NCBI GenBank assembly: GCA_963545485.1
Contig: CAUUJG010000005.1
Span: 5,890-69,889, forward strand
From: an uncultured Clostridia bacterium
GTDB lineage: Bacteria; Bacillota; Clostridia; Christensenellales; CAG-917
Reading direction: 5' to 3'
Length of the DNA: 64,000 nucleotides
In this document: piece after piece, positions 11,299 through 28,108 of the stretch
Position numbering within the stretch: position 1 is the stretch's first letter
How the letters are laid out: each line of letters starts with the position of its first letter
Translations under genes and position numbers: made by a program
Notes under the pieces: model-generated
Databases searched by the model: none
The model's input: the letters and a program-made list of their open reading frames with translations, nothing else
Told to the model about the DNA's origin: nothing

Positions 11299-11904
11299 CT
11301 ACATCTCTTGCATATATCTCTTTTCAGCAATATCCCAATTGACAAGCTCCCACCATGCAGATAAATAATCTGGTCGTTTATTTTGATATTTGAGATAATA
11401 AGCATGTTCCCACACATCATTTGTTATTACGATATTATATCCATCACTGAATGGAGTATCCTGATTTAAGTGATTTACAATAAAAAGTTCTCCATCTTTT
11501 TCTACTAGACTGACCCATCCGGATCCAAACTGTCCCTTTCCTTTATCTTCAAATTGCTTTTTAAATTCAGCAAAACTTCCAAATTTCTTTTCTATTGCTT
11601 TTTTTAGATTCCCAATAGGTTCTTTTGCTCCACCTGGAGTCATTACTTCCCAGTAGATCGTATGATTAAAATGTCCGCCTCCATGATTCTTTACAGCTGT
11701 CCTTTTATCAGCTGATATTTTATCAAGATTTCTCAAAATATCTTCAATCTTTCTATCTTCCCATCCTGTTCCCGCTAAAGCATTATTAAAATTTGTTACA
11801 TAGCCCTGGTGATGTTTGTCGTGATGTATGGCAACTGTCTCCTTATCTATGACTGGTTCAAGAGCATCATTTGCATATTTAAGCGGCTCCAATATAAATG
11901 CCAT
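11299..11904 (-). CDS. sodA: Fe/Mn superoxide dismutase
   Basis: 201 aa with HHDKHH, the metal ligands and the DVWEHAYYL signature. Confidence 0.95.
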   Translation of the reverse strand: MAFILEPLKYANDALEPVIDKETVAIHHDKHHQGYVTNFNNALAGTGWEDRKIEDILRNLDKISADKRTAVKNHGGGHFNHTIYWEVMTPGGAKEPIGNLKKAIEKKFGSFAEFKKQFEDKGKGQFGSGWVSLVEKDGELFIVNHLNQDTPFSDGYNIVITNDVWEHAYYLKYQNKRPDYLSAWWELVNWDIAEKRYMQEM

Positions 11905-12050: not shown

Positions 12051-12139
12051 GGAGATGTATCGAAGTGGTTATAACGGGGCTGACTCGAAATCAGTTAGGG
12101 AGCAATCCCTCGGGGGTTCGAATCCCTCCATCTCCGCCA
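12051..12139 (+). tRNA. tRNA-Ser (anticodon CGA), CCA encoded
   Basis: Acceptor GGAGATG pairs with CATCTCC. The anticodon loop is CTCGAAA, there is a long variable arm (TAGGGAGCAATCCCTCG), the T-loop is GGTTCGAATCC, and discriminator G precedes CCA. Confidence 0.9.
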
Positions 12140-12279
12140 CGCACCCAAAATTGCTACCTGATCATATCGAATTTACCCCAAATATTGCCCCTACACGCCC
12201 TAGTTTTAACGATTTAGTTTCTTTCGATGACATTATCAACGGCGAGTGGAGAGACCTGAGATTGCGAGGAAATGGTTAT
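12140..12279 (+). repeat. island repeat copy R1 (B segment only), abutting the tRNA-Ser 3' end
   Basis: The core ...cccaaaattgctacctgatcatatcgaattt...cattatcaacggcgagtggagagacct...ggaaatggttat recurs at 15499, 17700 and 24697, and in diverged form near 22130. Confidence 0.9.
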
Positions 12280-12326
12280 GTGAGAGAGTAAAAATAATTA
12301 CTAATTGTCTTGACTTGGGGAGCATA

Positions 12327-12995: not shown

Positions 12996-13271
12996 AATAG
13001 CTTACCTCTTTTATATGTCCATCTTTTCTATTTTTATTTTTTGAATCGTCCTTTCTCATTATTTCCAACATCTCCTATTTTTTCTACAGCTCTATCGTAA
13101 CATAATAACGGAACTTTTCACTAACGCCAAAATCGCCCGATAGAATTAGACGGGAACAAAAAATCAGCAGACAATATTTGCCTAATTACTCAATTCAAGA
13201 ATAGACCTGTTCGATAACCATTTCAAAACAATAGCAATCAGTTATAATATATTGAGTGATAAAAATGAACC

Positions 13272-14237
13272 ATGAGGAGGATGAGGATGAAAAAACGACT
13301 ACTTTCAATGAAAGCCGACGGATTTTATGGGATTTGGTATCCGAATTCCAAGAGAGAAAGTCACTGCGGTATGATACTTATGCTTGGTGATTCTTCGGAC
13401 GGCAGGATGGTTTGTGCCGGGGTAAAATGGGTGCATGGGCAAGGACTTCATGCACTTTCACTTTCGCCTGGGAAAAAGGATCTCGGTCGACACAATTATC
13501 CGTTGGAATTCGTGGGAAAGGCGATTGAATTCCTTCGAACTCAAGGCTGTGAGAAAATCGGAATTTGCGGAGTATCTGCAACGGGGATAACAGTTCTTCT
13601 TGCCGCATCTTATTATTCGGACATCAGTCTTACCATAGCAATGACTCCTGCGGATTTTGTCATGGAGGGGTATTATAGGGACGGTGCGGACGGTGCTCAC
13701 GAGCGACCGGGAGATCATGAATCCTCCGTGTCATGGGAGGGAAAACCTTTGCCGTATTTGCCTTATGCTTACAGACATCCGGAGTATTGGAAAAAAATTA
13801 AAGAAGAGTCCAAAGCGGGCGGTGATTTGATCGCAGCTCGAAAGATGTTTGATGAATCGGAACGTCGTCATCCCGTCACCGAAGAAGAAACGATTAAAAT
13901 AGAACGTATTCACGGGAAGATGGTTTGTATCGGAGCGGAAGATGACGTTTTGTGGGATACCTGCAAATATATTCGAAGAATGCAGCGGAGACTGGAACGG
14001 CTCCCACACAACTGTGATTTCGAGGCATTGACTTATGAACACGGGACACATTTTATATTTCCGGAATTCATGTTGAAACGGATATTTCCGATCGGCTCGG
14101 GACTTCTGATGGGATTTATATTTAAGGCGGCAAGAGAATATCCGAAGGAATGCAAAGAGACAAGATTGGATATTGACAGGAGACTTATGCGGATAATCAG
14201 TAAATGGTCAAACGAAAAAAAAAAGAAAAGCCATTAA
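13272..14237 (+). CDS. alpha/beta hydrolase, BAAT / acyl-CoA thioester hydrolase C-terminal-like
   Basis: 321 aa with a nucleophile elbow GVSATG and a C-terminal HGTHF. GC content is clearly higher than the flanks. The likely true start is the ATG at 13287, 6 nt after AGGAGG. Confidence 0.6.
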   Translation: MRRMRMKKRLLSMKADGFYGIWYPNSKRESHCGMILMLGDSSDGRMVCAGVKWVHGQGLHALSLSPGKKDLGRHNYPLEFVGKAIEFLRTQGCEKIGICGVSATGITVLLAASYYSDISLTIAMTPADFVMEGYYRDGADGAHERPGDHESSVSWEGKPLPYLPYAYRHPEYWKKIKEESKAGGDLIAARKMFDESERRHPVTEEETIKIERIHGKMVCIGAEDDVLWDTCKYIRRMQRRLERLPHNCDFEALTYEHGTHFIFPEFMLKRIFPIGSGLLMGFIFKAAREYPKECKETRLDIDRRLMRIISKWSNEKKKKSH

Positions 14238-14334
14238 TTTCCAGCTTAATGACATCGGTCTTTAACCGAGGCTGTCGATTTTTTAATGACCCCATCAAAA
14301 ATCTATCAAAATTAACACATCAATTCATGAAAAA

Positions 14335-14435
14335 TAAAAAAGCACCTATTTCTAGATGCCATAGTATTAAAGTCTTCACCATATTCTCCCAACAACTCAA
14401 CTCATCAATAATCGACAATCTAACCCACTCAATTA
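14335..14435 (+). repeat. island repeat fragment (A segment only)
   Basis: aaaaaagcacctatttctagatgccatagtatta..cttcaccatattctcccaacaactcaactcatcaataa... matches the A segments at 15349, 17540 and 24530. Confidence 0.85.
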
Positions 14436-14535: not shown

Positions 14536-15210
14536 TTAGATGAAATTTACTCTTCGATCTATTTCTTCATGCCATTCATCATCGTAATCTTTATAAAACC
14601 TAAAAAGACCTTTAAACGATTTCTTATTATTATTTAAATATGACCTTGAAAACTGGCAGTTGATACGTTGCAGACTTTCACAATTATAAAATGCCTCATC
14701 CTCAATACTTTTCACTGAACTTGGGATTATTATTTCTGAAATTGATGTCCCAAGAAATGCTGCAGCACCTATCTTTTCTAATCCTTGATTTAGCGTTATA
14801 GTTTTCAAATTTTTACAATAATAAAATGCATTTGTCCCTATTATTTTTATCCCATTTCCAAATGCAACCTCTCTTAAATTTGTACATTGATTAAAAGCAT
14901 GAGATTGAATTTCTTCTACTGAATTTGGAATATTCACTTTTTCAATATATTCCTTAAACATAAATGCCCTTTCGGATATTCTATTTATTGGATACCCTTT
15001 ATATTTTGTAGGGATATTTACATTTTCTCCAACACCTATGTATTCTTTTATTGAGTACCCGTTAGCAACTCTTTCCATTTTAAAATTTTTTTCTATATCT
15101 GCATCAGTCATAATCTTCTTTGTAGTCGCTCCATTTGAACAACCAAACAATGACATTGATAGTAGTAAAATTAAAGATATAAACAATGCTAACTTGATTT
15201 TTTTATTCAT
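14536..15210 (-). CDS. lipoprotein with BspA-type leucine-rich repeats
   Basis: 224 aa with a signal peptide and lipobox (LFGCSNG). Repeats follow the pattern I.IP.SV..I...AF..C..L. It is a paralogue of the C-terminal half of 15703-16890. Confidence 0.75.
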   Translation of the reverse strand: MNKKIKLALFISLILLLSMSLFGCSNGATTKKIMTDADIEKNFKMERVANGYSIKEYIGVGENVNIPTKYKGYPINRISERAFMFKEYIEKVNIPNSVEEIQSHAFNQCTNLREVAFGNGIKIIGTNAFYYCKNLKTITLNQGLEKIGAAAFLGTSISEIIIPSSVKSIEDEAFYNCESLQRINCQFSRSYLNNNKKSFKGLFRFYKDYDDEWHEEIDRRVNFI

Positions 15211-15242: not shown

Positions 15243-15273
15243 ATTCTACCCCCCCCCCATTTTAATTTGTCAA
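15243..15273 (-). promoter_or_regulatory. sigma-A-type promoter with a G10 tract inside the spacer
   Basis: The minus strand reads TTGACA(15273-15268)-AATTAAAAT-G10(15258-15249)-TAGAAT(15248-15243). The spacer is 19 nt. RBS GAGGGGAG and the ATG at 15210 follow. Confidence 0.65.
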
Positions 15274-15632
15274 TACCATAGTGAATTTTAAGTTATGAAA
15301 GACACATGAAATAGCCATTCAAAAATTAATCAAGAGACTCATAGAAAATAAAAAAATACCTATTTCTAGATGCCATAGTATTAGAGGCTTCACCATATTC
15401 TCCCAACAACTCAACTCCTCAATAACCGACCATCTACCCCACTTAATCACCCAAATTCAATGCCTCATTCCACAAGTATTATTAAACTTAATCTATGCGC
15501 CCAAAATTGCTACCTGATCATATCGAATTTGCCCAAAATATTGCCCCTACGCGCCCTAGTTTTGATGGTTTCGATTCTTTCGATGACATTATCAACGGCG
15601 AGTGGAGAGACCTTAGAATGCGAGGAAATGGT

Positions 15633-15669
15633 TATAAATAAAATATGGACATCGGTGAGGACATCCATA
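15633..15669 (-). terminator. intrinsic terminator at the end of repeat B
   Basis: The minus strand reads TATGGATGTC-CTCACC-GATGTCCATA (10-bp stem including 2 G-U pairs) followed by TTTTATTTAT. It lies 34 nt after the stop of 15703-16890. Confidence 0.6.
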
Positions 15670-15702: not shown

Positions 15703-16890
15703 CTATCCGTTTACCCAGTTGATTATAGATTCTTTTTCAAGTAGTCCTCTAAATTTACTCTCATTAGCTTGAACATAACTTTTCTTTAACTTACATTCTA
15801 TTGACCTAAGTTTATCGCAAAAGTTAAATGCCCTTTCTCCTATCTCTTCTACTGTACTTGGAATTGTTATTTCTTCGATACCTGTTTCATGAAACGCACT
15901 TGGTTCTATTTCTTTTAAGCCTTCATTTAGAGTCACTTTTTTAAGATTTGAACAACCCGCAAAAGCAAGTTTTCCTATTTTTTCTAATGTGCTTGGCATT
16001 CTTATTTCTTCGATACCTGCTCCAGCAAACGCTACTTGTTCTATTTCTTTCAATCCTTCATTTAGAGTCACTTTTTTAAGATTTTTACACCCCCAAAAAG
16101 CACCGCCTCCTATCTTTTCTAATGTACTTGGCATTGTGACTTTTTCTATATTGCTATCGAAAAATATTTTAGCTCTTGTCTTTTTACACGTTAATGGTTT
16201 AGTTAATTTCTTTAGAAAAGCTACTTCCTTTAAAAAATCAGAAAACGCTCCTTCTATTATTTCTATTATTTTATAACCTTTATAAATACTAGGAATTCTT
16301 ACATCTGTTGCTTCTCCCTTATATTTCGTTATTACCAATCCGTTTGGAACTCTTACTATTTCAAACAACTTTTTTATCTCGGCATCGGTCATCTTTATTT
16401 CAACTTCTTGATCCAAATCAAAATCTTCACTAGGGGATTTCTTAATATGAGCAAGTCCCAAATTACTATTTAACGCAAGTAATTCCATCTTCTTCTTTTC
16501 AAATTCTTCTTGAGTTATTATGCCAAGATCAAGTAACTCTTTTAATTTTCTTAGTTTAGTAATATTTTCTGCTGGCATGTTGTTTTGTGTTGTTTCTCGT
16601 GCCACATTCTTTTTATTCTTAATATCTTCATCTTTAGAATTTGCCACCATAAATAAAGCCACAACTGGAACAATGGGAATAAAAAACCCTACTATCAAAA
16701 GTATCCATATCGTATTATCATTTACAGATTTATTTTTTTTATTTTTGCCGTACTCAACAGTTACAACTATATGAAAGACAAAAGCTATTGTGACCAGAAT
16801 ATGCCCTATACCTATTATTAACGTTAGATAGCCCACTATATATAAGATAGCTGCATCTTTTGCCATTTTTTTAAGTTCATGTGATTCCAT
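15703..16890 (-). CDS. membrane protein with SHOCT domain and BspA-type LRR domain
   Basis: 395 aa. The N-terminal 2-3 TM region and the LRKLKELLDLGIITQEEFEKKKMELL (SHOCT) motif are paralogous to 16925-17407. The C-terminal LRRs are paralogous to 14536-15210. Confidence 0.75.
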   Translation of the reverse strand: MESHELKKMAKDAAILYIVGYLTLIIGIGHILVTIAFVFHIVVTVEYGKNKKNKSVNDNTIWILLIVGFFIPIVPVVALFMVANSKDEDIKNKKNVARETTQNNMPAENITKLRKLKELLDLGIITQEEFEKKKMELLALNSNLGLAHIKKSPSEDFDLDQEVEIKMTDAEIKKLFEIVRVPNGLVITKYKGEATDVRIPSIYKGYKIIEIIEGAFSDFLKEVAFLKKLTKPLTCKKTRAKIFFDSNIEKVTMPSTLEKIGGGAFWGCKNLKKVTLNEGLKEIEQVAFAGAGIEEIRMPSTLEKIGKLAFAGCSNLKKVTLNEGLKEIEPSAFHETGIEEITIPSTVEEIGERAFNFCDKLRSIECKLKKSYVQANESKFRGLLEKESIINWVNG

Positions 16891-16924: not shown

Positions 16925-17407
16925 TCATGCTAGTAGTTCATTTTTCTTCTTATCAAATTCCTCTTGAGTTATTATTCCTGAATCAAGCAACTCTTTTAGT
17001 TGTTTTAGTTTTTCAAAGTTATCAACTGTTTCTTCCCCTTTAGAGTTTTCAGCAGACATATTATTTGTAGTTTCTCCACTCAACTTTTTAGAATTTGCAA
17101 CTAAAAACAAAGCTACAATTTCAACAATATGCACAAAAAATCCGATTATCAATAATATAAAAACAGTATCTTTGCTATCTTTAGAAAATCTTCCATACTC
17201 AACTGTTACGATTATATGAAGTATAAAACTAACTAAATACATCGCACTAGCTATCGAATAAGTGATGACATATGCTATCACCATTCCCTTAGGATTTGCA
17301 GTTACGAGTGCCATAGCTATTATAAGTCCTACTATAATTAACACAAAAACTAGAATTTTTAGTATTGCAGTATTCTTTGCAAGTTTTTTGATTTTATTAA
17401 TTTCCAT
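16925..17407 (-). CDS. membrane protein with C-terminal SHOCT domain
   Basis: TM helices plus LKQLKELLDSGIITQEEFDKKKNELLA. The ATG at 17407 is preceded by GGAGGAA. The track ORF starts at a TTG at 17419. Confidence 0.75.
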   Translation of the reverse strand: MEINKIKKLAKNTAILKILVFVLIIVGLIIAMALVTANPKGMVIAYVITYSIASAMYLVSFILHIIVTVEYGRFSKDSKDTVFILLIIGFFVHIVEIVALFLVANSKKLSGETTNNMSAENSKGEETVDNFEKLKQLKELLDSGIITQEEFDKKKNELLA

Positions 17408-17435
17408 TATTTCCTCCAAAATTTAATATATTAAA

Positions 17436-17466
17436 ATCTTACCCCCCCCCCATTTAATTTTGTCAA
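17436..17466 (-). promoter_or_regulatory. sigma-A-type promoter with a G10 tract inside the spacer
   Basis: The minus strand reads TTGACA(17466-17461)-AAATTAAAT-G10(17451-17442)-TAAGAT(17441-17436). The spacer is 19 nt. RBS GGAGGAA and the ATG at 17407 follow. Confidence 0.65.
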
Positions 17467-17832
17467 TAGTTGAGTGAATTCGAGGTTATGAAAACATATG
17501 CAGTGGTCATTCAAATTAATATGATAATTCTTGGAAAAATAAAAAAGCCCCTATTTCTAGAAGCCATAATTTGAGAACATTCACCATATTCTCCCAACAA
17601 CTCAACTCATCAATAACCGCACATCTAACCCACTCAATTGACCAAATTCAACACCTCTGCTCCACAAGTATTATTAAGCTTAATCTACAAACCCACGCAC
17701 CCAAAATTGCTACCTGATCATATCGAATTTACCCAAAATATTGCCCCTATGTGCCCTTGTTTTGATGGTTTGATTTCTTTTGATGGGATTATCAACGGTG
17801 AGCGGAGAGACCTTGGAATTGAGGGAAATGGT

Positions 17833-17869
17833 TATAATAAAATATGGACATCGTGTTGGGACATCCATA
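17833..17869 (-). terminator. intrinsic terminator at the end of repeat B
   Basis: The minus strand reads TATGGATGTC-CCAACAC-GATGTCCATA followed by TTTTATTAT, downstream of res. Confidence 0.55.
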
Positions 17870-17961: not shown

Positions 17962-20175
17962 TTAGAAAATTTTTTCTATTGGCATCCATCTATTGTCTGA
18001 CATTTTCAATACGAACTCAGTGTTGTTGATATAAAGGTTATTGTCGACGTCACGAACAAAACCCCAACTTAGATGTTTTTCATTTGCATATTTCTTAAGT
18101 GCATTAAATTTATTACCAATCTGGGCATCTATATTCTTGTTTGTTCCAGCAATCTCGCCACCTTTTGTTTCAATAACCCACACCGTCCCATCTTTCTTTT
18201 TTACAATATAGTCTGGATAAAATAACCATTGTTTTTGAACAGCATCGATATATACAATTGAAAAATATTGTTGACCAGAATCGCCGTTTTTATACACCCA
18301 ATCAATATCATCTCTTCTTTCACAATACTGTTCAAATAATTGCTCACAAGTGCTTCTAATCAATCTCGTATTAAATTCAGATGTGTACCCATCATAGGCA
18401 TTACTCAATATGTCAATGACCTTTTTAGTAGTTGGATCGTATTTAAAAAAATCTTCAACTAGCATATGGAAGGTTGATGTTTTCACAAACAAATCCATTC
18501 TGCCCTGTTTAACCATTCCAGCTGTTACTTCTTTGAATTCTTCTTTTAGTTTTTTTTCATTGTTGATTATAAAGGCATAGAAGAAATCTGTATCGAGATT
18601 GAGCAGTTTCTTATATTTGTTTGTTTGTTTTTTGAACAAGCGTTCTAGAATTGCTTTTGTCTGTTTTGTTTCAAGACCAATGACTTTTTTAAGTTCATCA
18701 GTAGCATGTAACAAATAAATACCATGTTTATGCGTATTCACCTTTCTTTTAGTTTCAATTACTCGTGCTGTCTCATCACCTACTGTCTCTGTTTTTACAT
18801 AAGTACCAGTCAGTGTTTGACCAAGCAATGAATCGCCAAATACATATCCAGCATTTTCAAGTTTTAGTTGATTTTGTTTTTTATCGGCGGTTAGCTTGTA
18901 TTTCTCCACAAAGAAATCGTATATCTTATTCGAGACATCACGCTCCCCCATTATTGATAAATCACGATCACGAACTTGTTTTTCGAGCTCAAATGTTTTG
19001 CATTTATCCTTTAGAAATAGACGCCTCGTTTCGTACGCCTTATCCATTTGTTCAAGCAATCCGTTTTTCCAAATCTCGTCGAATGTATATACGAAGCAAT
19101 AGTCAAGAAGATTATCTTCATAATGTTTCGCTTCTGGCATCCTTCTAATTCTACCGATTGTTTGAATCTCAAATTGCTCACTCATTCCCTCACGAAGTTT
19201 CACTAGGATCTTTGCACGTGGACAATCCCAACCTGTGCTGATAGCTTGTTTCATGAGTAAAAAGACTGGTGTTGCATCATTGTCGGTCAAATTCTCAGGC
19301 AAATCCCGCTTGTCCTCGCTCATCCACTTACTAACAAATCCGTTCTCATATGTATAACCCATATCCCTAAGTTTTTGTTCTACTGCTTCTATTGTTTCTG
19401 GTTGTCCGTTTGGAAATTGAATTAATACAAGAGGTCTGATTTTCTTTTCTATTTCATTGTATCGTTTTTGAATAGCTTTTCTCTTTTCATCTGCAAGTTC
19501 TAATAACCTATCATAGTCATTATCTATTACTTCCCCACGCTCAATGCCTTCATTGACTGACAGTGCTTTTGTTATTAACCCTGCGTCAATCACCCTTCTT
19601 TCGTCAATTTCATAGTACTCAAACCTTTTATTCTCTCTAGCAGTGGCACTCATCCTTATTATGTGTTTGGCAGTGAAAGAGTCAATTATTGCATTTGCTT
19701 TCGCAGTATTATTGGAGTGTTCCTCATCAATTATAATGATAAAATATATATTGTTGCACCTTGCTTCATCAATTCTATCATACAATGTTTTCCGTTCACT
19801 CTCGGTTATTGCCCTATTACCAGTCTTCGTCACTAATTCCCAATTAATAAATGTCGTGCTTCCCGCTGTAAAACCGCTGGTTAAGGCATCATTTAATGTT
19901 TGTGCTTTCATGGTTGGGGCTATTTTTAGCATCTTTCGACGGCTTTGTTCCTCGAGGTCTCCTTTGCCAGGACATAACCATATAAAAGCAACATTTTTGT
20001 CAACTTTATTAAAAAACTCGTTTATGTAATTGATGAGAATTATTGTTTTACCTGAACCAGTAGGTGATTTAATCGTTACAGTCGGTTTATGATTCCCTGT
20101 CGTTAATTCAATTAACTTTATTACCGCATCTTCCTGAAAATCAAAAAGTTTGATATTCACATTTCCACTTACCAT
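17962..20175 (-). CDS. res: Type III restriction enzyme, Res subunit (SF2 helicase plus PD-(D/E)xK nuclease)
   Basis: 737 aa with Walker A SPTGSGKT, DEEH box IIIDEEH, a helicase C-terminal QTIGRIRR motif, and a C-terminal PDYIV...VIETKGG nuclease motif. The start overlaps the mod stop (ATGGTAA). Confidence 0.85.
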   Translation of the reverse strand: MVSGNVNIKLFDFQEDAVIKLIELTTGNHKPTVTIKSPTGSGKTIILINYINEFFNKVDKNVAFIWLCPGKGDLEEQSRRKMLKIAPTMKAQTLNDALTSGFTAGSTTFINWELVTKTGNRAITESERKTLYDRIDEARCNNIYFIIIIDEEHSNNTAKANAIIDSFTAKHIIRMSATARENKRFEYYEIDERRVIDAGLITKALSVNEGIERGEVIDNDYDRLLELADEKRKAIQKRYNEIEKKIRPLVLIQFPNGQPETIEAVEQKLRDMGYTYENGFVSKWMSEDKRDLPENLTDNDATPVFLLMKQAISTGWDCPRAKILVKLREGMSEQFEIQTIGRIRRMPEAKHYEDNLLDYCFVYTFDEIWKNGLLEQMDKAYETRRLFLKDKCKTFELEKQVRDRDLSIMGERDVSNKIYDFFVEKYKLTADKKQNQLKLENAGYVFGDSLLGQTLTGTYVKTETVGDETARVIETKRKVNTHKHGIYLLHATDELKKVIGLETKQTKAILERLFKKQTNKYKKLLNLDTDFFYAFIINNEKKLKEEFKEVTAGMVKQGRMDLFVKTSTFHMLVEDFFKYDPTTKKVIDILSNAYDGYTSEFNTRLIRSTCEQLFEQYCERRDDIDWVYKNGDSGQQYFSIVYIDAVQKQWLFYPDYIVKKKDGTVWVIETKGGEIAGTNKNIDAQIGNKFNALKKYANEKHLSWGFVRDVDNNLYINNTEFVLKMSDNRWMPIEKIF

Positions 20176-21889
20176 GATTCTCCAACCTCCTTCATTTCAA
20201 AATCAAAATAATAATCTGGAATTGTTTGTATTTTCACTTTATCAAAAAGCTCTATCTGCTTAGTCGATAACAAAACTTCTCTAGAAATGTATATACACTC
20301 TGGAAAATTGTTTTTATCCCATTTTGCTTCCAAATCGTCTGCAGCACTATCGTTTAATAAAACAACATATTTCTTGCCGTCAATCTTTATTCCATTTTCA
20401 AGTTGTATCATTTCACATACGTGTTCAAGTAAGGCATCTAATAAAAAGTCCTCATCTCGTGATACAAAATCTGTCTTGTAATATTTTAAATTATGTGGTA
20501 ACTCCTTCTGAATATTCTTAAGCCTTTGATAGGTGACTTCCTCGCAAATTTTATTCTCATTATTCGTGCAAAGTATATATCTGCGATTCCCGCCATCTTC
20601 TTTGTTTAATTCAATCACTGCATGACCTGTTGTACCTGAACCCGCAAAAAAATCTAAAATTATTGTGGGTTCGCTATTCTTTGTTTCTGCACTTTTAATC
20701 AAGCGTTTTAATAACTTTAATGGTTTTGGATAATCAAATTTACCTCGACCTAATATTTTGATGACTTCATTGTTCCCGTTTGTTGAATCAGTAATTATAT
20801 TTTTTAAATTCGTAGAGAACATGTCTCTAATTTTTGTAAATATCCTAAATGTGTCTCCGTCCTTTTGAAAATGAAGATTTTCTACATCTTCACAAACTTT
20901 TTTTTCAGACCATCTCCATGCATGAAATTTATGTATACCATCTGCATTGTTGTGAGGTTTTATCAAAACAAAATTTGGATCTATTTTTTTTACTACTTCT
21001 CCATCATCTATCTTGGCAGTAATTACTTCTTTCGTTCTATCATTATAATAAATGTTATAAACTAAATTTGGTCTAGTTTCTTCATTGAAGGCAGAGTTCG
21101 TGTTAAATAACTCATTTTTAATCACATACTCACTTATTTTGTCTTTATATATTCTATATTCATTGTTTTTATAAATTGAAGGCATTTCTGTCGACAATTC
21201 TCTTATGTCTCCCTTAAAAGTATGAATATTTTCACCTGTTGCCGCATATAACAAAATATTTTCATATGTCTTGACAGCTCCACCACGCCCAATTTGTCTA
21301 CCTTTAGAATTATTTATCCATACAAAATCTGAAATAAAATTTTGTTCACCAAATATAGAATCACATAAAAGTTTTAAATTATACAACTCGTTATCATCAA
21401 TACTGATAAAAATAACACCGTTTTCTTTTAGTAATTGTTTTGCTATGCATAATCGTTTTGCCATAAAAGATAGCCATTTTGAATGTCTATAGCCATCTTC
21501 TTCTCCAACCATTGCATCATCATAAATAAATTCCTTCCCCGTGTTGTATGGCGGATCAATATAAATTACATCAATTTTTCCCTTATGTGTTTTTTGTAAT
21601 AAATACAGAGAGTGTAAATTGTCTCCCTCTAGTAGAAAATTATACCCCCCCCCCGCACATTGCTTATTATTTTTTCTTTTACTTCGGTAAAAACAGGAAT
21701 ATTGCCCCGTATATTATCATCAACTGTTTCTGTATGTTCCTCCCAAACCAAACCATACTTTTTACTTTTCAAAGCACTCTCAATTTCCCCAATTGCTACA
21801 AGGGACTCATCATCTGTCTTATTTTGTTCTTTAAGTTGTTGAAGAAAATTTAGCATCTTTTCTCTCTTCAGTTTTGATATATTCCCCAT
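20169..21889 (-). CDS. mod: Type III R-M Mod N6-adenine methyltransferase, frameshifted at a G10 tract (phase-OFF as assembled)
   Basis: The ORFs 21629-21889 and 20169-21512 are two pieces of one gene. With G11 or G8 the frame reads ...RGGGGYNFLLEGDNLHSLYLLQKTHKGKIDVIYIDPPYNTGKEFIYDDAMVGEEDG..., running into the 447-aa ORF that carries motif I (LDFFAGSGTTGHA). Confidence 0.85.
21645..21654 (-). repeat. homopolymeric G10 (C10 on the plus strand) inside the mod coding sequence
   Basis: Counted directly as 10 consecutive C at 21645-21654. The reading frame breaks immediately downstream (TAG at codon 87). Confidence 0.95.
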
Positions 21890-22049
21890 TTTTGCTCCTT
21901 ATTCTTTTTTATTGGCGAAAACATGCCAAACTTTAATACATATTAATTAAATAAGAGAGAAATATCAATTTAATTTATTAGTGACGACTGCCATGAGCCC
22001 GCATCACACGGTTGTCCAATAGAATTTAGTTTGATTAAAATATTTTGAT

Positions 22050-22305
22050 AACGGTACATCTAATTCACCTAATACAAGACATCCCCCACTCCAAATCCCT
22101 TATCAAGAATATTCTACAAACCCACCGCCAACAAATCACTAACGGATAATATCAAAACTAGCCCAAACATTGCCCCTACATGCCCTAGATTTCGTGACTT
22201 TGATGTTTATGACTACATTATTCACCGTGAGATACTAACCCCTTAAATAATAGGAAATGATTATGTATGGGAATAAAATATGGGCATCGGTTAGGACATC
22301 CATTT
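22050..22305 (+). repeat. island repeat copy R4 (diverged A+B)
   Basis: Retains ...ctacaaacccac...cattgcccctacatgccctag...attat.caccgtgag...ggaaatgattatg...aaaatatgggcatcggttaggacatccat in the same order as the other copies. Confidence 0.7.
22272..22303 (-). terminator. intrinsic terminator at the end of repeat B
   Basis: The minus strand reads ATGGATGTC-CTAACC-GATGCCCAT followed by ATTTTATT. It lies 16 nt after the stop of 22319-22849. Confidence 0.5.
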
Positions 22306-24335: not shown

Positions 24336-24529
24336 GCCCTGGTCTTATAAACCCAGTTTTTAACGACTGGCTGTTCTCTCGTTACGACCTCAATCGTACC
24401 ACGCTTTTTTACGGCGTCAAATCGTAAATAAAATATAAAGGAGCTTTATAAAAATGTCAAGATGTCGTTGAAAAACAAATCTCCTAAGAGGACATTAAAG
24501 AGTTATCAATATTAATATGACACATCATG

Positions 24530-24872
24530 GAAAATGAAAAACGCCTACTTATAGATGCCATAGTATTAGAGCCTTCACCATATTCTCCCAACAACTCAAC
24601 TACACAATAACCGCATATCTAACCCACTCAAATATCCTAATTAAACACCCCCACCCCATATGTATTATTGAACATGCTCTACAAACGCACAACGACAAAA
24701 TTGCTACCTGATCATATCGAATTTACCCCAAATATCACCCCTGTGTGCCCTTGCTTTGATGATTAGGATTCTTACGATGGCATTATCAACAAAAAGTGGA
24801 CTAACCCTAGAATGGCAAAAATAATTGTGTGGAGAATAAAAAATACGGACATCAATTGGGAGATCCATATGC
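24530..24872 (+). repeat. island repeat copy R5 (A+B)
   Basis: ...cttatagatgccatagtattagagccttcaccatattctcccaacaactcaac...caaaattgctacctgatcatatcgaatttacccc...cattatcaac...acggacatcaattgggagatccata. Confidence 0.88.
24838..24869 (-). terminator. intrinsic terminator at the end of repeat B
   Basis: The minus strand reads TATGGATCTCCCAATTGATGTCCGTA (imperfect stem) followed by TTTTTT. It lies 21 nt after the stop of 24890-26104. Confidence 0.5.
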
Positions 24873-24889
24873 TTGAAACTCTACACCTA

Positions 24890-26104
24890 TCATTTGTTTT
24901 TATTGATTTGCTTAATTAAGTAGTTCAAAAGCACTTCACTGTAGTCCATTGGTATATCCTTTGTATGCTTATATAACGCATTACAAAAATCTAGGTAATA
25001 CGGATCATTGACATTTTTTGAAACTAAATAATTATAAATATCTCTGTATCTTATTTCTTTATATAACTTACTACCCTCATATAATGACAAATCTAGTTTG
25101 TTATGATTCGGTAAAAATAGAAAATACGATGCTCTTTTATGTTTCTCTCTAGCATAGTTCTCAGCGAAACTATAATACTTTGATAATTGAGATTGTATCA
25201 AACAACCATCACTAAAATCATGTCGATATGAAACTCCATTAATTCCCGATTTTATTTTGTTTTCAATAATAAGAATATTCGTATCGTCTTCAATCCATAA
25301 ATCAATATTATGAAACTCTCTTTTTATACTATATGTAGGATTTATATTGATATTTAAAATTTCTCTTGCGAAGTCTACAAATAAATAGCTGTATTTACTA
25401 AAAAAATAATTGAACATATTTGAGAAAGACAATTCATCATCCTCTTTGCCGATTAAGGTTAAAAAATTAAAATGATTATTATGTTTCTCGTTATCTATTC
25501 TAGTTATTATTTCACACCAAATCTCCTCGTCATTAATCATCCTCATAATTTCATTAAAGGAATCAGGTGTACTAATGTCGTCAACATACATATGCAGTGA
25601 CTGCTTTGCGAAACGTTTGTCCGCCATTTTATAAGAAACAATACAGTCACTAACTGTTTTATTGTAATGCGAATCTAATATAAAGATTTGTCTCTTCGGA
25701 TACAACAGTTTCTCTGATTTAAAAGTTATAGGCACCCATTCTTCTGTATCTTTTATGTAAGGAACTCCGCCATAATTAATAGGATGTTTTTTAGTATATT
25801 CTTTTAGCTCATGTGAACAAATTCCAAGTTTTTCTTTTAACCTGCATCCTTTTGCATGCACCAACTGACTTTCATCATTTAAGATACTAACCCCTATTAC
25901 TTCAAAACACCCAGTTTCATATAATCTCGTGTGAATAACTGCACGAACCGTATTATCATACCTTGAATTAAACAAGCCTTGAGGATTAATAAAGCAATAA
26001 TTTATTCCCTCATCTGAATGAAGTAAATTTATAACCTCGCCACCACCAATACCACGAGTCAAATACTCTCCAGCATACATTCTATTAATAATAATTGAAT
26101 TCAT
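24890..26104 (-). CDS. PD-(D/E)xK nuclease-family protein with an unassigned N-terminal domain
   Basis: The C-terminal half has NIDLWIEDDTNILIIENKIKSG...QLSKYY (D...E-x-K core). The ATG at 26104 overlaps the upstream TAA (TAATG) and is preceded by GAGAGGA. Confidence 0.65.
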   Translation of the reverse strand: MNSIIINRMYAGEYLTRGIGGGEVINLLHSDEGINYCFINPQGLFNSRYDNTVRAVIHTRLYETGCFEVIGVSILNDESQLVHAKGCRLKEKLGICSHELKEYTKKHPINYGGVPYIKDTEEWVPITFKSEKLLYPKRQIFILDSHYNKTVSDCIVSYKMADKRFAKQSLHMYVDDISTPDSFNEIMRMINDEEIWCEIITRIDNEKHNNHFNFLTLIGKEDDELSFSNMFNYFFSKYSYLFVDFAREILNININPTYSIKREFHNIDLWIEDDTNILIIENKIKSGINGVSYRHDFSDGCLIQSQLSKYYSFAENYAREKHKRASYFLFLPNHNKLDLSLYEGSKLYKEIRYRDIYNYLVSKNVNDPYYLDFCNALYKHTKDIPMDYSEVLLNYLIKQINKNK

Positions 26105-26622
26105 TATATTTCCTCTCTCGAGACATAACACATTGATGCTTTCTCATCTGGTAGCACTAAATAAAACTCCACATCAAACTCGTCAATAAGTTCTCTTAGT
26201 TTTTCATACACTTTAGATCCAACACATTCATGCTTATAGCCGTGATGACCCGTTCCCAAACTAACACTAATAATATTTTTATAACCCCTTTGGGCAGCAC
26301 TATTGAATATTAAATAATAACTATCAAGCAATTCCACATAAGGATTTGTTGATTCAAAGAACTTCGGACAATAGATATGTAAAATATCCACATTTAAACC
26401 AAAATCTGGCGTGAATCGTATCTCATTCACTTCCATATTTTTAGTAAATTTTTTTTGACAATAATCTTCTAATTCTCGCATGCCTGCTCGTTTATATGTT
26501 TGTCCACAAATGCCACTGCCATATAACATATATTTATTATTGCTATTAACGATTAAATCTTTGCCACCCAAATAGTCGAATAAAGTGCCAGTTACTATGT
26601 GCAGTTTGTTAGTTCTTTCCAT
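26104..26622 (-). CDS. macrodomain (ADP-ribose binding/hydrolase) protein
   Basis: 172 aa with IVNSNN...GSGICGQ and ISVSLGTGHHGY blocks. These correspond to the macrodomain NAAN...GGGV and ISFP.IStG.yG motifs. Confidence 0.7.
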   Translation of the reverse strand: MERTNKLHIVTGTLFDYLGGKDLIVNSNNKYMLYGSGICGQTYKRAGMRELEDYCQKKFTKNMEVNEIRFTPDFGLNVDILHIYCPKFFESTNPYVELLDSYYLIFNSAAQRGYKNIISVSLGTGHHGYKHECVGSKVYEKLRELIDEFDVEFYLVLPDEKASMCYVSREEI

Positions 26623-26701
26623 AAATTACCTTTGAGCATATATTACGTCACTAATGTCAAACATCTTTGCAATGCACACCTTTACTTTATTCCTTATATT
26701 T

Positions 26702-28108
26702 TTACAGCAACCTCTTGTATATATCTAACATACTTTCCATTTGATATTTTAATAGCCAAGCGACATCATTATATTCACTTGTTTTCTTTATTGTTTCTAA
26801 TAACTTTGGATAATATCTCTCAGTTTCTTTTATCATTTGAAACATCCTCTCCTTACTAAGTCCCCACGACATTGTTGTTAAGTTATTGCAACGATCAATA
26901 CACTTTGTTATTGATGCCTTTACATTGCAGCAAATTGTATTGTAGTACATTTCCATATCGCTTTCAGTTGTATTCTCTTTTGATTTCCTTCTTGTCATAA
27001 GTCTTACTATTTCTTTCGATTCGTCTCCAACTGGTAACTCACGCTCTTCCTTCCCGCAATCTTCAATTACATCGTGTAAAAGTATTGCGGAAATTAACGC
27101 ATCATCTCTAATCCCCATTGCCAGTGCGTGACAAGCCATATTTAAGGGATGATATATGTAAGGAACTTCTGAGTTTTTTCTTGTTTGTCCATAATGTGAT
27201 TCTACTGCATACTCAATACTCTTTAATGTATCATTCAAGTTGCATTTCTTTGCTACTCGCTCAACATATTCCCTCATGTGTTCCCAATCATATATTGCTT
27301 CCTTTGTTTTAAAATCTTTCCCTTTTATACCAATCCTTCGAATTTCTTCAACACCCACAATTTGCAATTTTCTTATCCCCTGTCTGAATTTTTCAAATTT
27401 GTTTGCACGTCTAAAAGGTAATGTTGGAAAGATTGTCGCACACATTGCTGTTAGAATACCTATAGGTATACACAATCTCACCATAAAATTTATTAATTCT
27501 ACCTTCATATTACTATTTAAATTTTGCAAGTAACCGCCACTTAATACCAAAAACAATGGGAAAATAAAAGTTGAAAATATTTGTAAAACTACTATTGCAC
27601 CCTTCCATTCATAAGTTTTTTTATTTCTCAAAATTTCTATTTCACTAGCAATTGCATCTAGTGCTTTTTCATCTGCTGTGTCTACTTTTTTAGCTATAAG
27701 TAGTTCATTTAAGACTCTTGCTTCTTCTAAATCTGATTCCCCTATAAGTGGGTCGACTTCAACTGCTTTTTTTAAGGTTATATTAGCATTAATACAAAAC
27801 CATAAACCCACAATGAAAAATAAGATAACACAAACTATAAAAACATAAAATTCCTTTATGGTCCCAACTTTGAGAGCAAACACTCTTATTCCTTCTACAC
27901 CTATAATGATAAGCAAAATCGAACACAAAACTGAATAAATAATACCCTGTATTTTTCTTTCCTTTCTACTCTTTTCAAATCCACTTTCTTCTAATTTTTC
28001 ATTAAATGCAGGTTTCTTTCCTTTAGACTGTTTTTTCTCTTCTTTTTTCCTTTTTTCCTCATTGTTTAGTTTTTTAACATACTGTTTTGCTAATTCTTCC
28101 ACCAACAT
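26702..28108 (-). CDS. multi-pass membrane protein with a C-terminal SpoT/RelA-type HD hydrolase domain
   Basis: 468 aa with a Lys/Glu-rich N-terminus and about 6 predicted TM helices. The C-terminal part has YIYHPLNMACHALAMG...LLHDVIEDCG (the H...HD...ED pattern of (p)ppGpp-hydrolase-type HD domains). Confidence 0.65.
   Translation of the reverse strand: MLVEELAKQYVKKLNNEEKRKKEEKKQSKGKKPAFNEKLEESGFEKSRKERKIQGIIYSVLCSILLIIIGVEGIRVFALKVGTIKEFYVFIVCVILFFIVGLWFCINANITLKKAVEVDPLIGESDLEEARVLNELLIAKKVDTADEKALDAIASEIEILRNKKTYEWKGAIVVLQIFSTFIFPLFLVLSGGYLQNLNSNMKVELINFMVRLCIPIGILTAMCATIFPTLPFRRANKFEKFRQGIRKLQIVGVEEIRRIGIKGKDFKTKEAIYDWEHMREYVERVAKKCNLNDTLKSIEYAVESHYGQTRKNSEVPYIYHPLNMACHALAMGIRDDALISAILLHDVIEDCGKEERELPVGDESKEIVRLMTRRKSKENTTESDMEMYYNTICCNVKASITKCIDRCNNLTTMSWGLSKERMFQMIKETERYYPKLLETIKKTSEYNDVAWLLKYQMESMLDIYKRLL

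Follow-up and report, generated by a model that had tools for sequence, protein, structure and literature searches.

A length-variable poly-G tract as the probable on/off switch of a Type III mod gene in uncultured gut Clostridia

The 64,000-nt stretch of DNA analysed here (hereafter the window) comes from an uncultured Clostridia bacterium (contig CAUUJG010000005.1, assembly GCA_963545485.1) and carries a gene for a Type III DNA methyltransferase, mod, which is put out of frame by a homopolymer of ten G residues in its 5' part and is followed directly by its restriction partner gene, res. In our proposal, mod is phase-variable and this poly-G tract genuinely switches it on and off; we put the probability of this reading at about 0.85. 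In public assemblies, tract lengths that keep the gene in frame (ON) and lengths that do not (OFF) were both found in near-identical backgrounds, which bears out, as far as the switch is concerned, the phase-variable Type III mod that a preliminary description of the window had proposed.

The tract lies at positions 21645-21654 on the minus strand (C10 on the plus strand), in the context ...AGCAATGTGC-G10-TATAATTTTCTACTAG..., and encodes a glycine run in a variable linker that separates an N-terminal domain of about 80 aa from the methylase core. The mod gene spans 20169-21889 on the minus strand. The Shine-Dalgarno sequence AAGGAG (21895-21900, minus strand) stands 5 nt 5' of its ATG (21889), and promoter-like sites, which are consensus matches only, were found upstream of it on the same strand (21968-21940 and 21929-21901). 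At G10 the frame opened by this ATG gives an 86-aa N-terminal open reading frame (ORF; 21629-21889, minus strand) that ends ...SNVRGGGIIFY at a TAG stop (21631-21629), and a 447-aa ORF is left downstream (20169-21512, minus strand). The latter holds motif I, the S-adenosylmethionine-binding FAGSGTT (20628-20648, minus strand), without the catalytic motif IV, DPPY (21546-21557, minus strand), which lies 5' of the first start codon of this ORF. Thus, at G10 the DPPY is outside every ORF that has a start codon, and because the 447-aa ORF begins only at 21512, past the DPPY, no product with the catalytic motif is predicted from this state. A stand-alone active methylase encoded by the 447-aa ORF was considered and rejected for the same reason. 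When the tract is set to G8 or G11, a single ORF of 572 or 573 aa, respectively, reads ...RGG(G)YNFLLEGDNLHSLYLLQKTHKGKIDVIYIDPPYNTGKEFIYDD... and is continuous with the 447-aa ORF. The restored Mod contains YNFLLEGDN...IDPPYNTG and FAGSGTT. The preliminary description had stated that G10 places mod out of frame, that adding one G or removing two reads through, that a Mod N-terminus with motif IV is continuous with the ORF carrying motif I, and that res overlaps the mod stop (ATGGTAA at 20169-20175), and our reading of the frames agrees with it on all of these points. At the remaining lengths translation stops after 82/83 codons (G9/G12) or after 86/87 codons (G10/G13).

Tracts of this kind are rare in the window, whose G+C content is 33%. 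Only three G/C runs of at least 7 nt were found, all of them C10 (15249-58, 17442-51 and 21645-54), and G9 matched six times (three tracts with two overlapping matches each) against 0.04 matches expected from 100 shuffles. In a published survey, mononucleotide tracts of at least nine were counted as switchable repeats (PMC5909438), and the G10 of the window falls in this range.

Tract length was compared in 30 public metagenome contigs carrying this gene or its orthologues, which were read as DNA and which make 31 loci together with the window. Among the contigs, G9 and G10 were found 12 times each, the in-frame G11 twice, G13 once, an interrupted G16TG once and, in a third lineage, G8 twice. 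The tract occupies the same site in the 28 contigs of the window lineage and of a sister lineage. In the third lineage (N-terminus 77% identical) it stands at the same codon position, where G8 is out of frame and the in-frame length would be G9 or G6. Over 16 kb, the contig L083, which has G13, differs from the window by 11 substitutions, an identity of 99.9%, and L084 and L085, which are 97.5% identical to the window, have G9. In the sister lineage, which shares 76% DNA identity with the window and has another chromosomal context, G10 was observed in 12 contigs, G9 in 10, G11 in two and G16TG in one. Three of these contigs, L092 (G9), L102 (G10) and L086 (G11), are between 1 and 7 substitutions apart in 4100 bp of mod and res, and the sole indel among them over these 4.1 kb is the tract. 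Altogether, G9, G10, G11, G13 and G16TG are found in backgrounds that are 97.5-99.98% identical. The two in-frame contigs (L086 and L087, G11, ON) encode a Mod of 582 aa and an intact Res of 737 aa.

A similar length series was seen at the protein level when a collection of 15 billion proteins was searched with the N-terminal 82 residues and the cluster members were then listed. The peptides end, before the stop, in RGGV (G9), RGGGV (G12), RGGGIIFY (G10), RGGGGIIFY (G13) and RGGGGGV (about G18), and the in-frame peptides RGG(G)YNFLLEGDN (G8, G11) are also present, so that the peptides range from G8 to G18. Protein databases contain the gene in two halves rather than whole; the 447-aa half has a counterpart of 449 aa in another lineage, 74% identical to it, and both are cut at the same place. 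Distant homologues without a tract have a variable linker of 5-7 residues (LGNGEK, SNDSSD) before the conserved YNFLLEGDN. To judge from these comparisons, the tract is old, positionally conserved, uninterrupted and length-polymorphic, and sited where extra glycines are tolerated. Three loci that had been taken up as possible fragmented mod genes (L039, L056 and L068) were rejected, all being in frame with a different central domain. A scan of species-representative genomes with Mod returned no close relative (best full-length match 44%), and none of 80 loci had a G/C run of at least 8 nt in mod. The best full-length Mod relatives outside the lineage are 44-51% identical. A plasmid database searched with the 10-kb region gave a sole match of 188 bp to a helicase (75% identical).

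The coding sequence on the far side of the tract is under selection. Downstream of it, the ratio of nonsynonymous to synonymous substitution rates (dN/dS) is about 0.05 between the window and L081 (proportion of synonymous differences, pS, 0.73 and saturated; of nonsynonymous differences, pN, 0.137) and 0.15 between the window and L084, and for Res it is 0.06. Of the 27 loci that can be read as far as the normal mod stop, 24 have an uninterrupted frame-corrected mod, the exceptions being L093 and L104/L109, and in three lineages about 490 codons 3' of the tract have stayed open although synonymous divergence is saturated. In the window, the genes mod and res, frame apart, contain no lesion. 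Since a second lesion is absent from the window, dN/dS is 0.05-0.15 and 24 of 27 mod genes are open, these sequence comparisons rule out a long-dead gene.

We next weigh what else could produce such a locus. One explanation is that every tract is in truth G11 or G8, that mod is constitutively intact and that the observed lengths are assembly or sequencing errors. G homopolymers are indeed prone to error, the window belongs to a 78-kb contig of a metagenome-type assembly and the coverage of L083 is only about 6x. However, 28 of the 30 contigs are out of frame, with G9 and G10 at about 12 contigs each, from several samples and three pipelines, and two contigs from the same lineage had G11 called correctly. 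A systematic error is unlikely because two different wrong lengths would not both recur. As G9 and G10 are each present in MEGAHIT, scaffold-pipeline and Logan assemblies of different samples, the tract lengths are not an artefact of one pipeline. A uniform G11 or G8, which the preliminary description had named as the sign of an assembly slip, is thus not what we observed, and we regard this explanation as highly improbable. It is also conceivable that the gene is expressed constitutively at a low level, with RNA-polymerase slippage or ribosomal frameshifting restoring the frame in some transcripts. Long homopolymers are known slippage sites, and such expression would explain the strong purifying selection despite genomic lengths that are mostly out of frame. 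However, the length variation is seen directly in the DNA and is enough to account for the selection, and slippage during expression would be compatible with phase variation rather than a replacement for it. As a full explanation we consider it very improbable.

A decaying pseudogene, in which the frameshift is fixed and the system is on its way to loss, would fit the OFF lengths at 29 of the 31 DNA loci and the additional damage found in some relatives. Yet the window mod and res have no other lesion, selection is strong (dN/dS 0.05-0.15) across about 490 codons, the tract stays uninterrupted at the same codon across lineages, and in-frame alleles with an intact res exist. The dead gene that the preliminary description had allowed for, G10 fixed together with further inactivating mutations, was therefore not found here, and decay seems to us improbable. 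Several observations nevertheless weigh against a phase-variable switch. The ON state is rare (2 of the 31 DNA loci and, in the count by protein clusters, which overlaps with those loci, about 7 of about 70 contigs), which would also fit a drift of the system towards loss. Second mod lesions occur in a few relatives (A9 to A8 in L093, a nonsense change in L104/L109), and res has been disrupted on separate occasions in three groups of loci (L083, L094/L099 and L096/L097). Finally, assemblies report the majority tract length only, and the comparison is one between samples. Because of this, and because poly-G runs are error-prone, single-G differences in low-coverage contigs such as L083 could be miscalls. 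If the tract is a phase-variable switch, the dominance of the OFF state may reflect a cost of self-restriction upon switching, or an ON state that is favoured only under phage pressure.

The breaks in res differ in kind. In L083, one G is added at a non-repeat site (GAGTTTTTT-G-AATAAAG) at position 11503 of that contig, which corresponds to about 20011 of the window. In the other two sets, res is interrupted at two different points, in L094 (~8060) and L099 and in L096 (~7413) and L097, at junctions to repeated sequence. The interrupting sequence is probably a mobile element, as the same sequence forms the ends of other contigs. Because mod also has occasional second lesions, we do not regard the loss of res as demonstrating that the system has moved from defence to regulation.

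Frameshifts at A runs were observed within the sister-lineage mod as well. That of L093 is located at about nt 1396 of mod, and in the gene of the protein P0167 an A8 run about 50 nt 3' of the G tract is frameshifted in an otherwise in-frame G8 allele. Both could be assembly errors or mark a second mutable site.

We infer that the tract changes its length by slippage and that this is reversible within a clone. Slipped-strand mispairing at the poly-G, 79 codons into mod, would cause single-G changes at replication. When the number of G residues is n = 2 mod 3 (G8, G11), the full 572/573-aa Mod would be made and the target methylated, and together with Res unmethylated DNA would be restricted. 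With n = 1 mod 3 (the G10 of the window, G13), translation would end at 86-87 aa without a DPPY product, and with n = 0 mod 3 (G9, G12) the full-length Mod would be lost as well. A Type III Res needs Mod for the recognition of DNA. Because Res depends on Mod for site recognition, the OFF state would silence both methylation and restriction, and the population would be a heritable, reversible mix of methylating and restricting cells and of silent cells. Further downstream, such a mix may affect phage defence or, as a phasevarion, the expression of genes.

The n = 0 lengths deserve separate consideration. The sequence ATGTGC (21655-21660, minus strand, within AATGTGC) adjoins the tract at its 5' edge, and with n = 0 mod 3 its ATG shares the reading frame of the methylase core. 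At G9/G12 a 496/497-aa ORF (MCGGGYNFLLEGDN...) opens from it, which keeps the DPPY and FxGxG motifs, lacks the N-terminal 77 residues and has 20 nt in common with the end of the 82-aa ORF. In contigs with G9, L084 and L092 among them, gene callers annotated the 496/497-aa ORF. The arrangement is shared by the window and sister lineages and absent from the third lineage, and upstream of the tract-edge ATG there is no Shine-Dalgarno sequence. Since the upstream ORF stops 17 nt 3' of this ATG, the 496-aa ORF might be translated by termination-reinitiation. In public contigs G9 is as common as G10. One could thus propose a three-state switch giving full, no or N-truncated Mod, in a wider version together with poly-G loci in promoter spacers (described below), but we find this idea unlikely, and a functional N-truncated Mod from G9/G12 is unlikely on its sequence. 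By its reading frames the G10 of the window is a hard-OFF state, from which no DPPY-containing product appears possible. If the three-state proposal were true, it would mean an N-truncated methylase with altered activity or an altered partnership with Res, and the two promoter G10 tracts and mod would form a small set of poly-G contingency loci in one repeat-bounded island. To our knowledge, such sets have so far been documented mainly in Campylobacter, Helicobacter and Neisseria.

The assignment to Type III is based on both proteins. Mod matches Pfam N6_N4_Mtase (1.8e-35), its best PADLOC match is MTase_III (5.3e-141), with Type III making up 11 of the 12 top matches, and the MTase_III match consists of two stretches with the centre skipped. 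Among Type III Mods in the Protein Data Bank (PDB), it matches 7DSU (3e-63), 6K0W (3.7e-45) and the EcoP15I Mod 4ZCF_A (9.7e-33). The motif order, DPPY, then a variable region, then FAGSGTT, fits a beta-class N6-adenine methylase. The res gene (17962-20175, minus strand) is intact, encodes 737 aa and starts within the ATGGTAA that overlaps the mod stop. It contains superfamily 2 (SF2) helicase motifs (GSGKT 20044-20067, DEEH 19717-19728 and QTIGRIRR 19141-19164) and a nuclease motif PD...ExK (18202-18219 and 18160-18174), all on the minus strand. Res matches Pfam ResIII (8.3e-18), and its matches to PADLOC REase_III are partial only (8.1e-15). An exhaustive search placed it in a family of proteins of about 740 aa with 2596 representatives, 584 of them below 1e-30. 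An alignment of 33 members shows no variation in GxGKT, DEEH, SAT and QxxGRxxR or in a C-terminal PD(655)...E(669)xK(671), and all of these are found in the Res of the window. The AlphaFold model of Res has a predicted local distance difference test (pLDDT) score of 84.5, and its first PDB match in Foldseek is the EcoP15I Res 4zcf_C (E 3.5e-12, 664 columns), though at a low template modelling (TM) score of 0.34-0.39 and with other SF2 helicases ranking close behind. Sequence searches of the PDB with Res, both as a single sequence and as a 33-sequence profile, gave generic SF2 P-loop matches only and did not match the 4ZCF Res. In view of the Mod matches and of the motif, profile and fold results for Res, we file the pair as a Type III-type restriction-modification system with a Res from a short, divergent branch. 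As in EcoP15I, Mod is predicted to be a beta-class m6A methylase (N6-methyladenine) in which a recognition domain lies between motifs IV and I, Res is an SF2 helicase with a C-terminal PD-(D/E)XK nuclease and the gene order is mod-res. The EcoP15I system, in contrast, is not known to be phase-variable, and its Res shows no significant sequence match to the 737-aa Res of the window but a fold match only. The EcoP15I Res is 970 aa long, and 627 residues of its chain 4zcf_C were aligned.

The central part of Mod (about aa 200-400; 20700-21300, minus strand) is a variable region and a putative target-recognition domain. Between the window and the L086/L092 allele, identity in this region is 10-28% for the protein and 50-57% for the DNA, whereas both ends are conserved. 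The first 120 residues of Mod are 92-100% identical across all alleles and the last ~140 residues are conserved, and the centres of the window/L081 type and of the L086 type share 10-32% identity. L081 and L086 lie in the same genomic context and have 100% identical N-termini and 95-100% identical C-termini with different centres. By sequence, there are alleles in which the central target-recognition domain has been swapped. In the alleles of modA (PMC1976455) and of modH (PMC5909438), likewise, the ends are conserved and the recognition domain is swapped. In addition, the ~300 bp around the tract (21600-21900) are the best-conserved DNA of the module, with 85-94% identity versus about 75% elsewhere (L081, L092, L112), and pS is 0.25 in the tract segment versus 0.73 in the rest of the module. 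This points either to a switch segment that has recombined recently or to one that is constrained in its nucleotide sequence.

The other two G10 tracts lie in putative promoters on the minus strand. Tract 1 (15243-15273) is composed of TTGACA (15273-15268), 9 nt plus G10 and TAGAAT (15248-15243), and downstream of it a BspA-type LRR_5 lipoprotein of 224 aa is encoded (14536-15210). Tract 2 (17436-17466) is composed of TTGACA (17466-17461), 9 nt plus G10 and TAAGAT (17441-17436), and is followed by genes for a SHOCT membrane protein (16925-17419) and a SHOCT/LRR_5 protein (15703-16890). Both sites resemble sigma-70 promoters. Their spacer measures 19 bp with G10 and would shrink to the optimal 17 bp with G8, a design that matches known promoter-spacer phase variation. 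The preliminary description had counted three G10 switches in this island. Two further G10 tracts in promoter spacers are indeed present, but the tract at 17442, upstream of the SHOCT genes, did not vary in length among the window, L083 and L090, being G10 in all three samples. A scan of JGI metagenomes for the promoter-tract motif returned one chance match, a G7 in unrelated sequence, and an exact look-up of the 224-aa LRR lipoprotein, made for comparison of the promoter tract, returned no record.

When L081 and L082, which carry the orthologous locus of the sister lineage, were compared with the window by blastn, only 22167-17962 (minus strand) aligned. This is the exact extent of the mod-res module that the two lineages have in common, and its neighbourhoods differ between them. 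Housekeeping proteins of the window fall into clusters of 30-113 members from many gut metagenomes versus four members for the Res cluster, and we therefore consider mod-res accessory. For one housekeeping protein, Ppx, the closest named relatives were entries labelled "MAG: Clostridia bacterium" and, with 59% identity, Candidatus Faecicola pullistercoris. The G+C profile has no compositional island at mod-res. On the minus strand, a repeated element 150-400 bp in length stands at the head of every gene module; its copies are 62-86% identical and lie at 12134-12286, 14308-14433, 15322-15642, 17513-17842, 22119-22271 and 24507-24836, the first of which adjoins the 3' end of a tRNA-Ser gene (12051-12139). 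The element has a hairpin followed by a T-run (TATGGATGTCC...GATGTCCATA TTTTATT) and short open frames on both strands, and a search of 11.5-25.5 kb against Rfam matched tRNA only and left the element without a match. The position of mod-res between two copies suggests cassette-like accretion or exchange. Elsewhere in the window, 13000-14000 has a G+C content of 42.5% against a background of 33%, includes a BAAT/acyl-CoA thioesterase-like gene on the plus strand (13272-14237) and is probably foreign DNA. Upstream of mod-res, 24890-28108 (minus strand) encodes a weakly PD-(D/E)XK-like protein of 413 aa, a Macro-domain protein of 172 aa and an HD_4 membrane protein of 468 aa. These neighbour proteins matched no PADLOC model, and together with mod-res the genes could form a defence-type neighbourhood.

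Type III methylases with phase variation have an established role in host-adapted pathogens as switches of epigenetic state and of defence, and about 17% of Type III mod genes carry repeats of this sort. In the gut microbiome, studies of epigenetic phase variation have centred on invertible Type I and specificity genes. A gut preprint on the subject covers inversions of methylase and specificity genes, and the terms SSR and simple sequence repeat are absent from it, from which the homopolymer route appears to be under-described in gut Clostridia. The present locus adds population evidence to the already known class of repeat-switched Type III mod genes and implies that an abundant uncultured lineage of gut Clostridia uses the homopolymer route. 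As ON and OFF states and recognition-domain alleles are readable from public metagenomes, a population study of the dominant state per host, under phage or diet pressure, becomes possible. For annotation, it means that a "frameshifted" mod of this type should not be labelled a pseudogene.

The locus most resembles in design modH, modJ and modL of H. pylori and modU of C. upsaliensis, Type III mod genes with G[n] tracts (PMC5909438). In these, too, the G tract is inside the mod ORF, ON and OFF depend on the frame, the alleles differ centrally and res lies directly downstream. They differ in that the host here is an uncultured gut Clostridia bacterium, of Gram-positive type and with 33% G+C, and that the Mod of the window belongs to another sequence family. 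With modA of Haemophilus influenzae and Neisseria, the gene shares conserved 5' and 3' parts, a variable centre, a repeat in the 5' part of the ORF and the inactivation of res in a minority of strains (PMC1976455). However, modA has tetranucleotide repeats (AGTC/AGCC) and regulons demonstrated by experiment, whereas the repeat described here is a homopolymer. Among H. influenzae strains with a phase-variable modA, res has been lost in 17% (PMC1976455), and the breakage of res in L083, L094/L099 and L096/L097 resembles this loss. Repeat-bearing Type III mod genes are also known from Firmicutes, including commensals, namely from Streptococcus thermophilus, S. suis (modS), S. mitis and Lactobacillus saerimneri (PMC5909438, PMC6265453), but those Gram-positive genes carry pentanucleotide repeats (GCACA/GAGCA) in contrast to the poly-G tract of the gut Clostridia mod.

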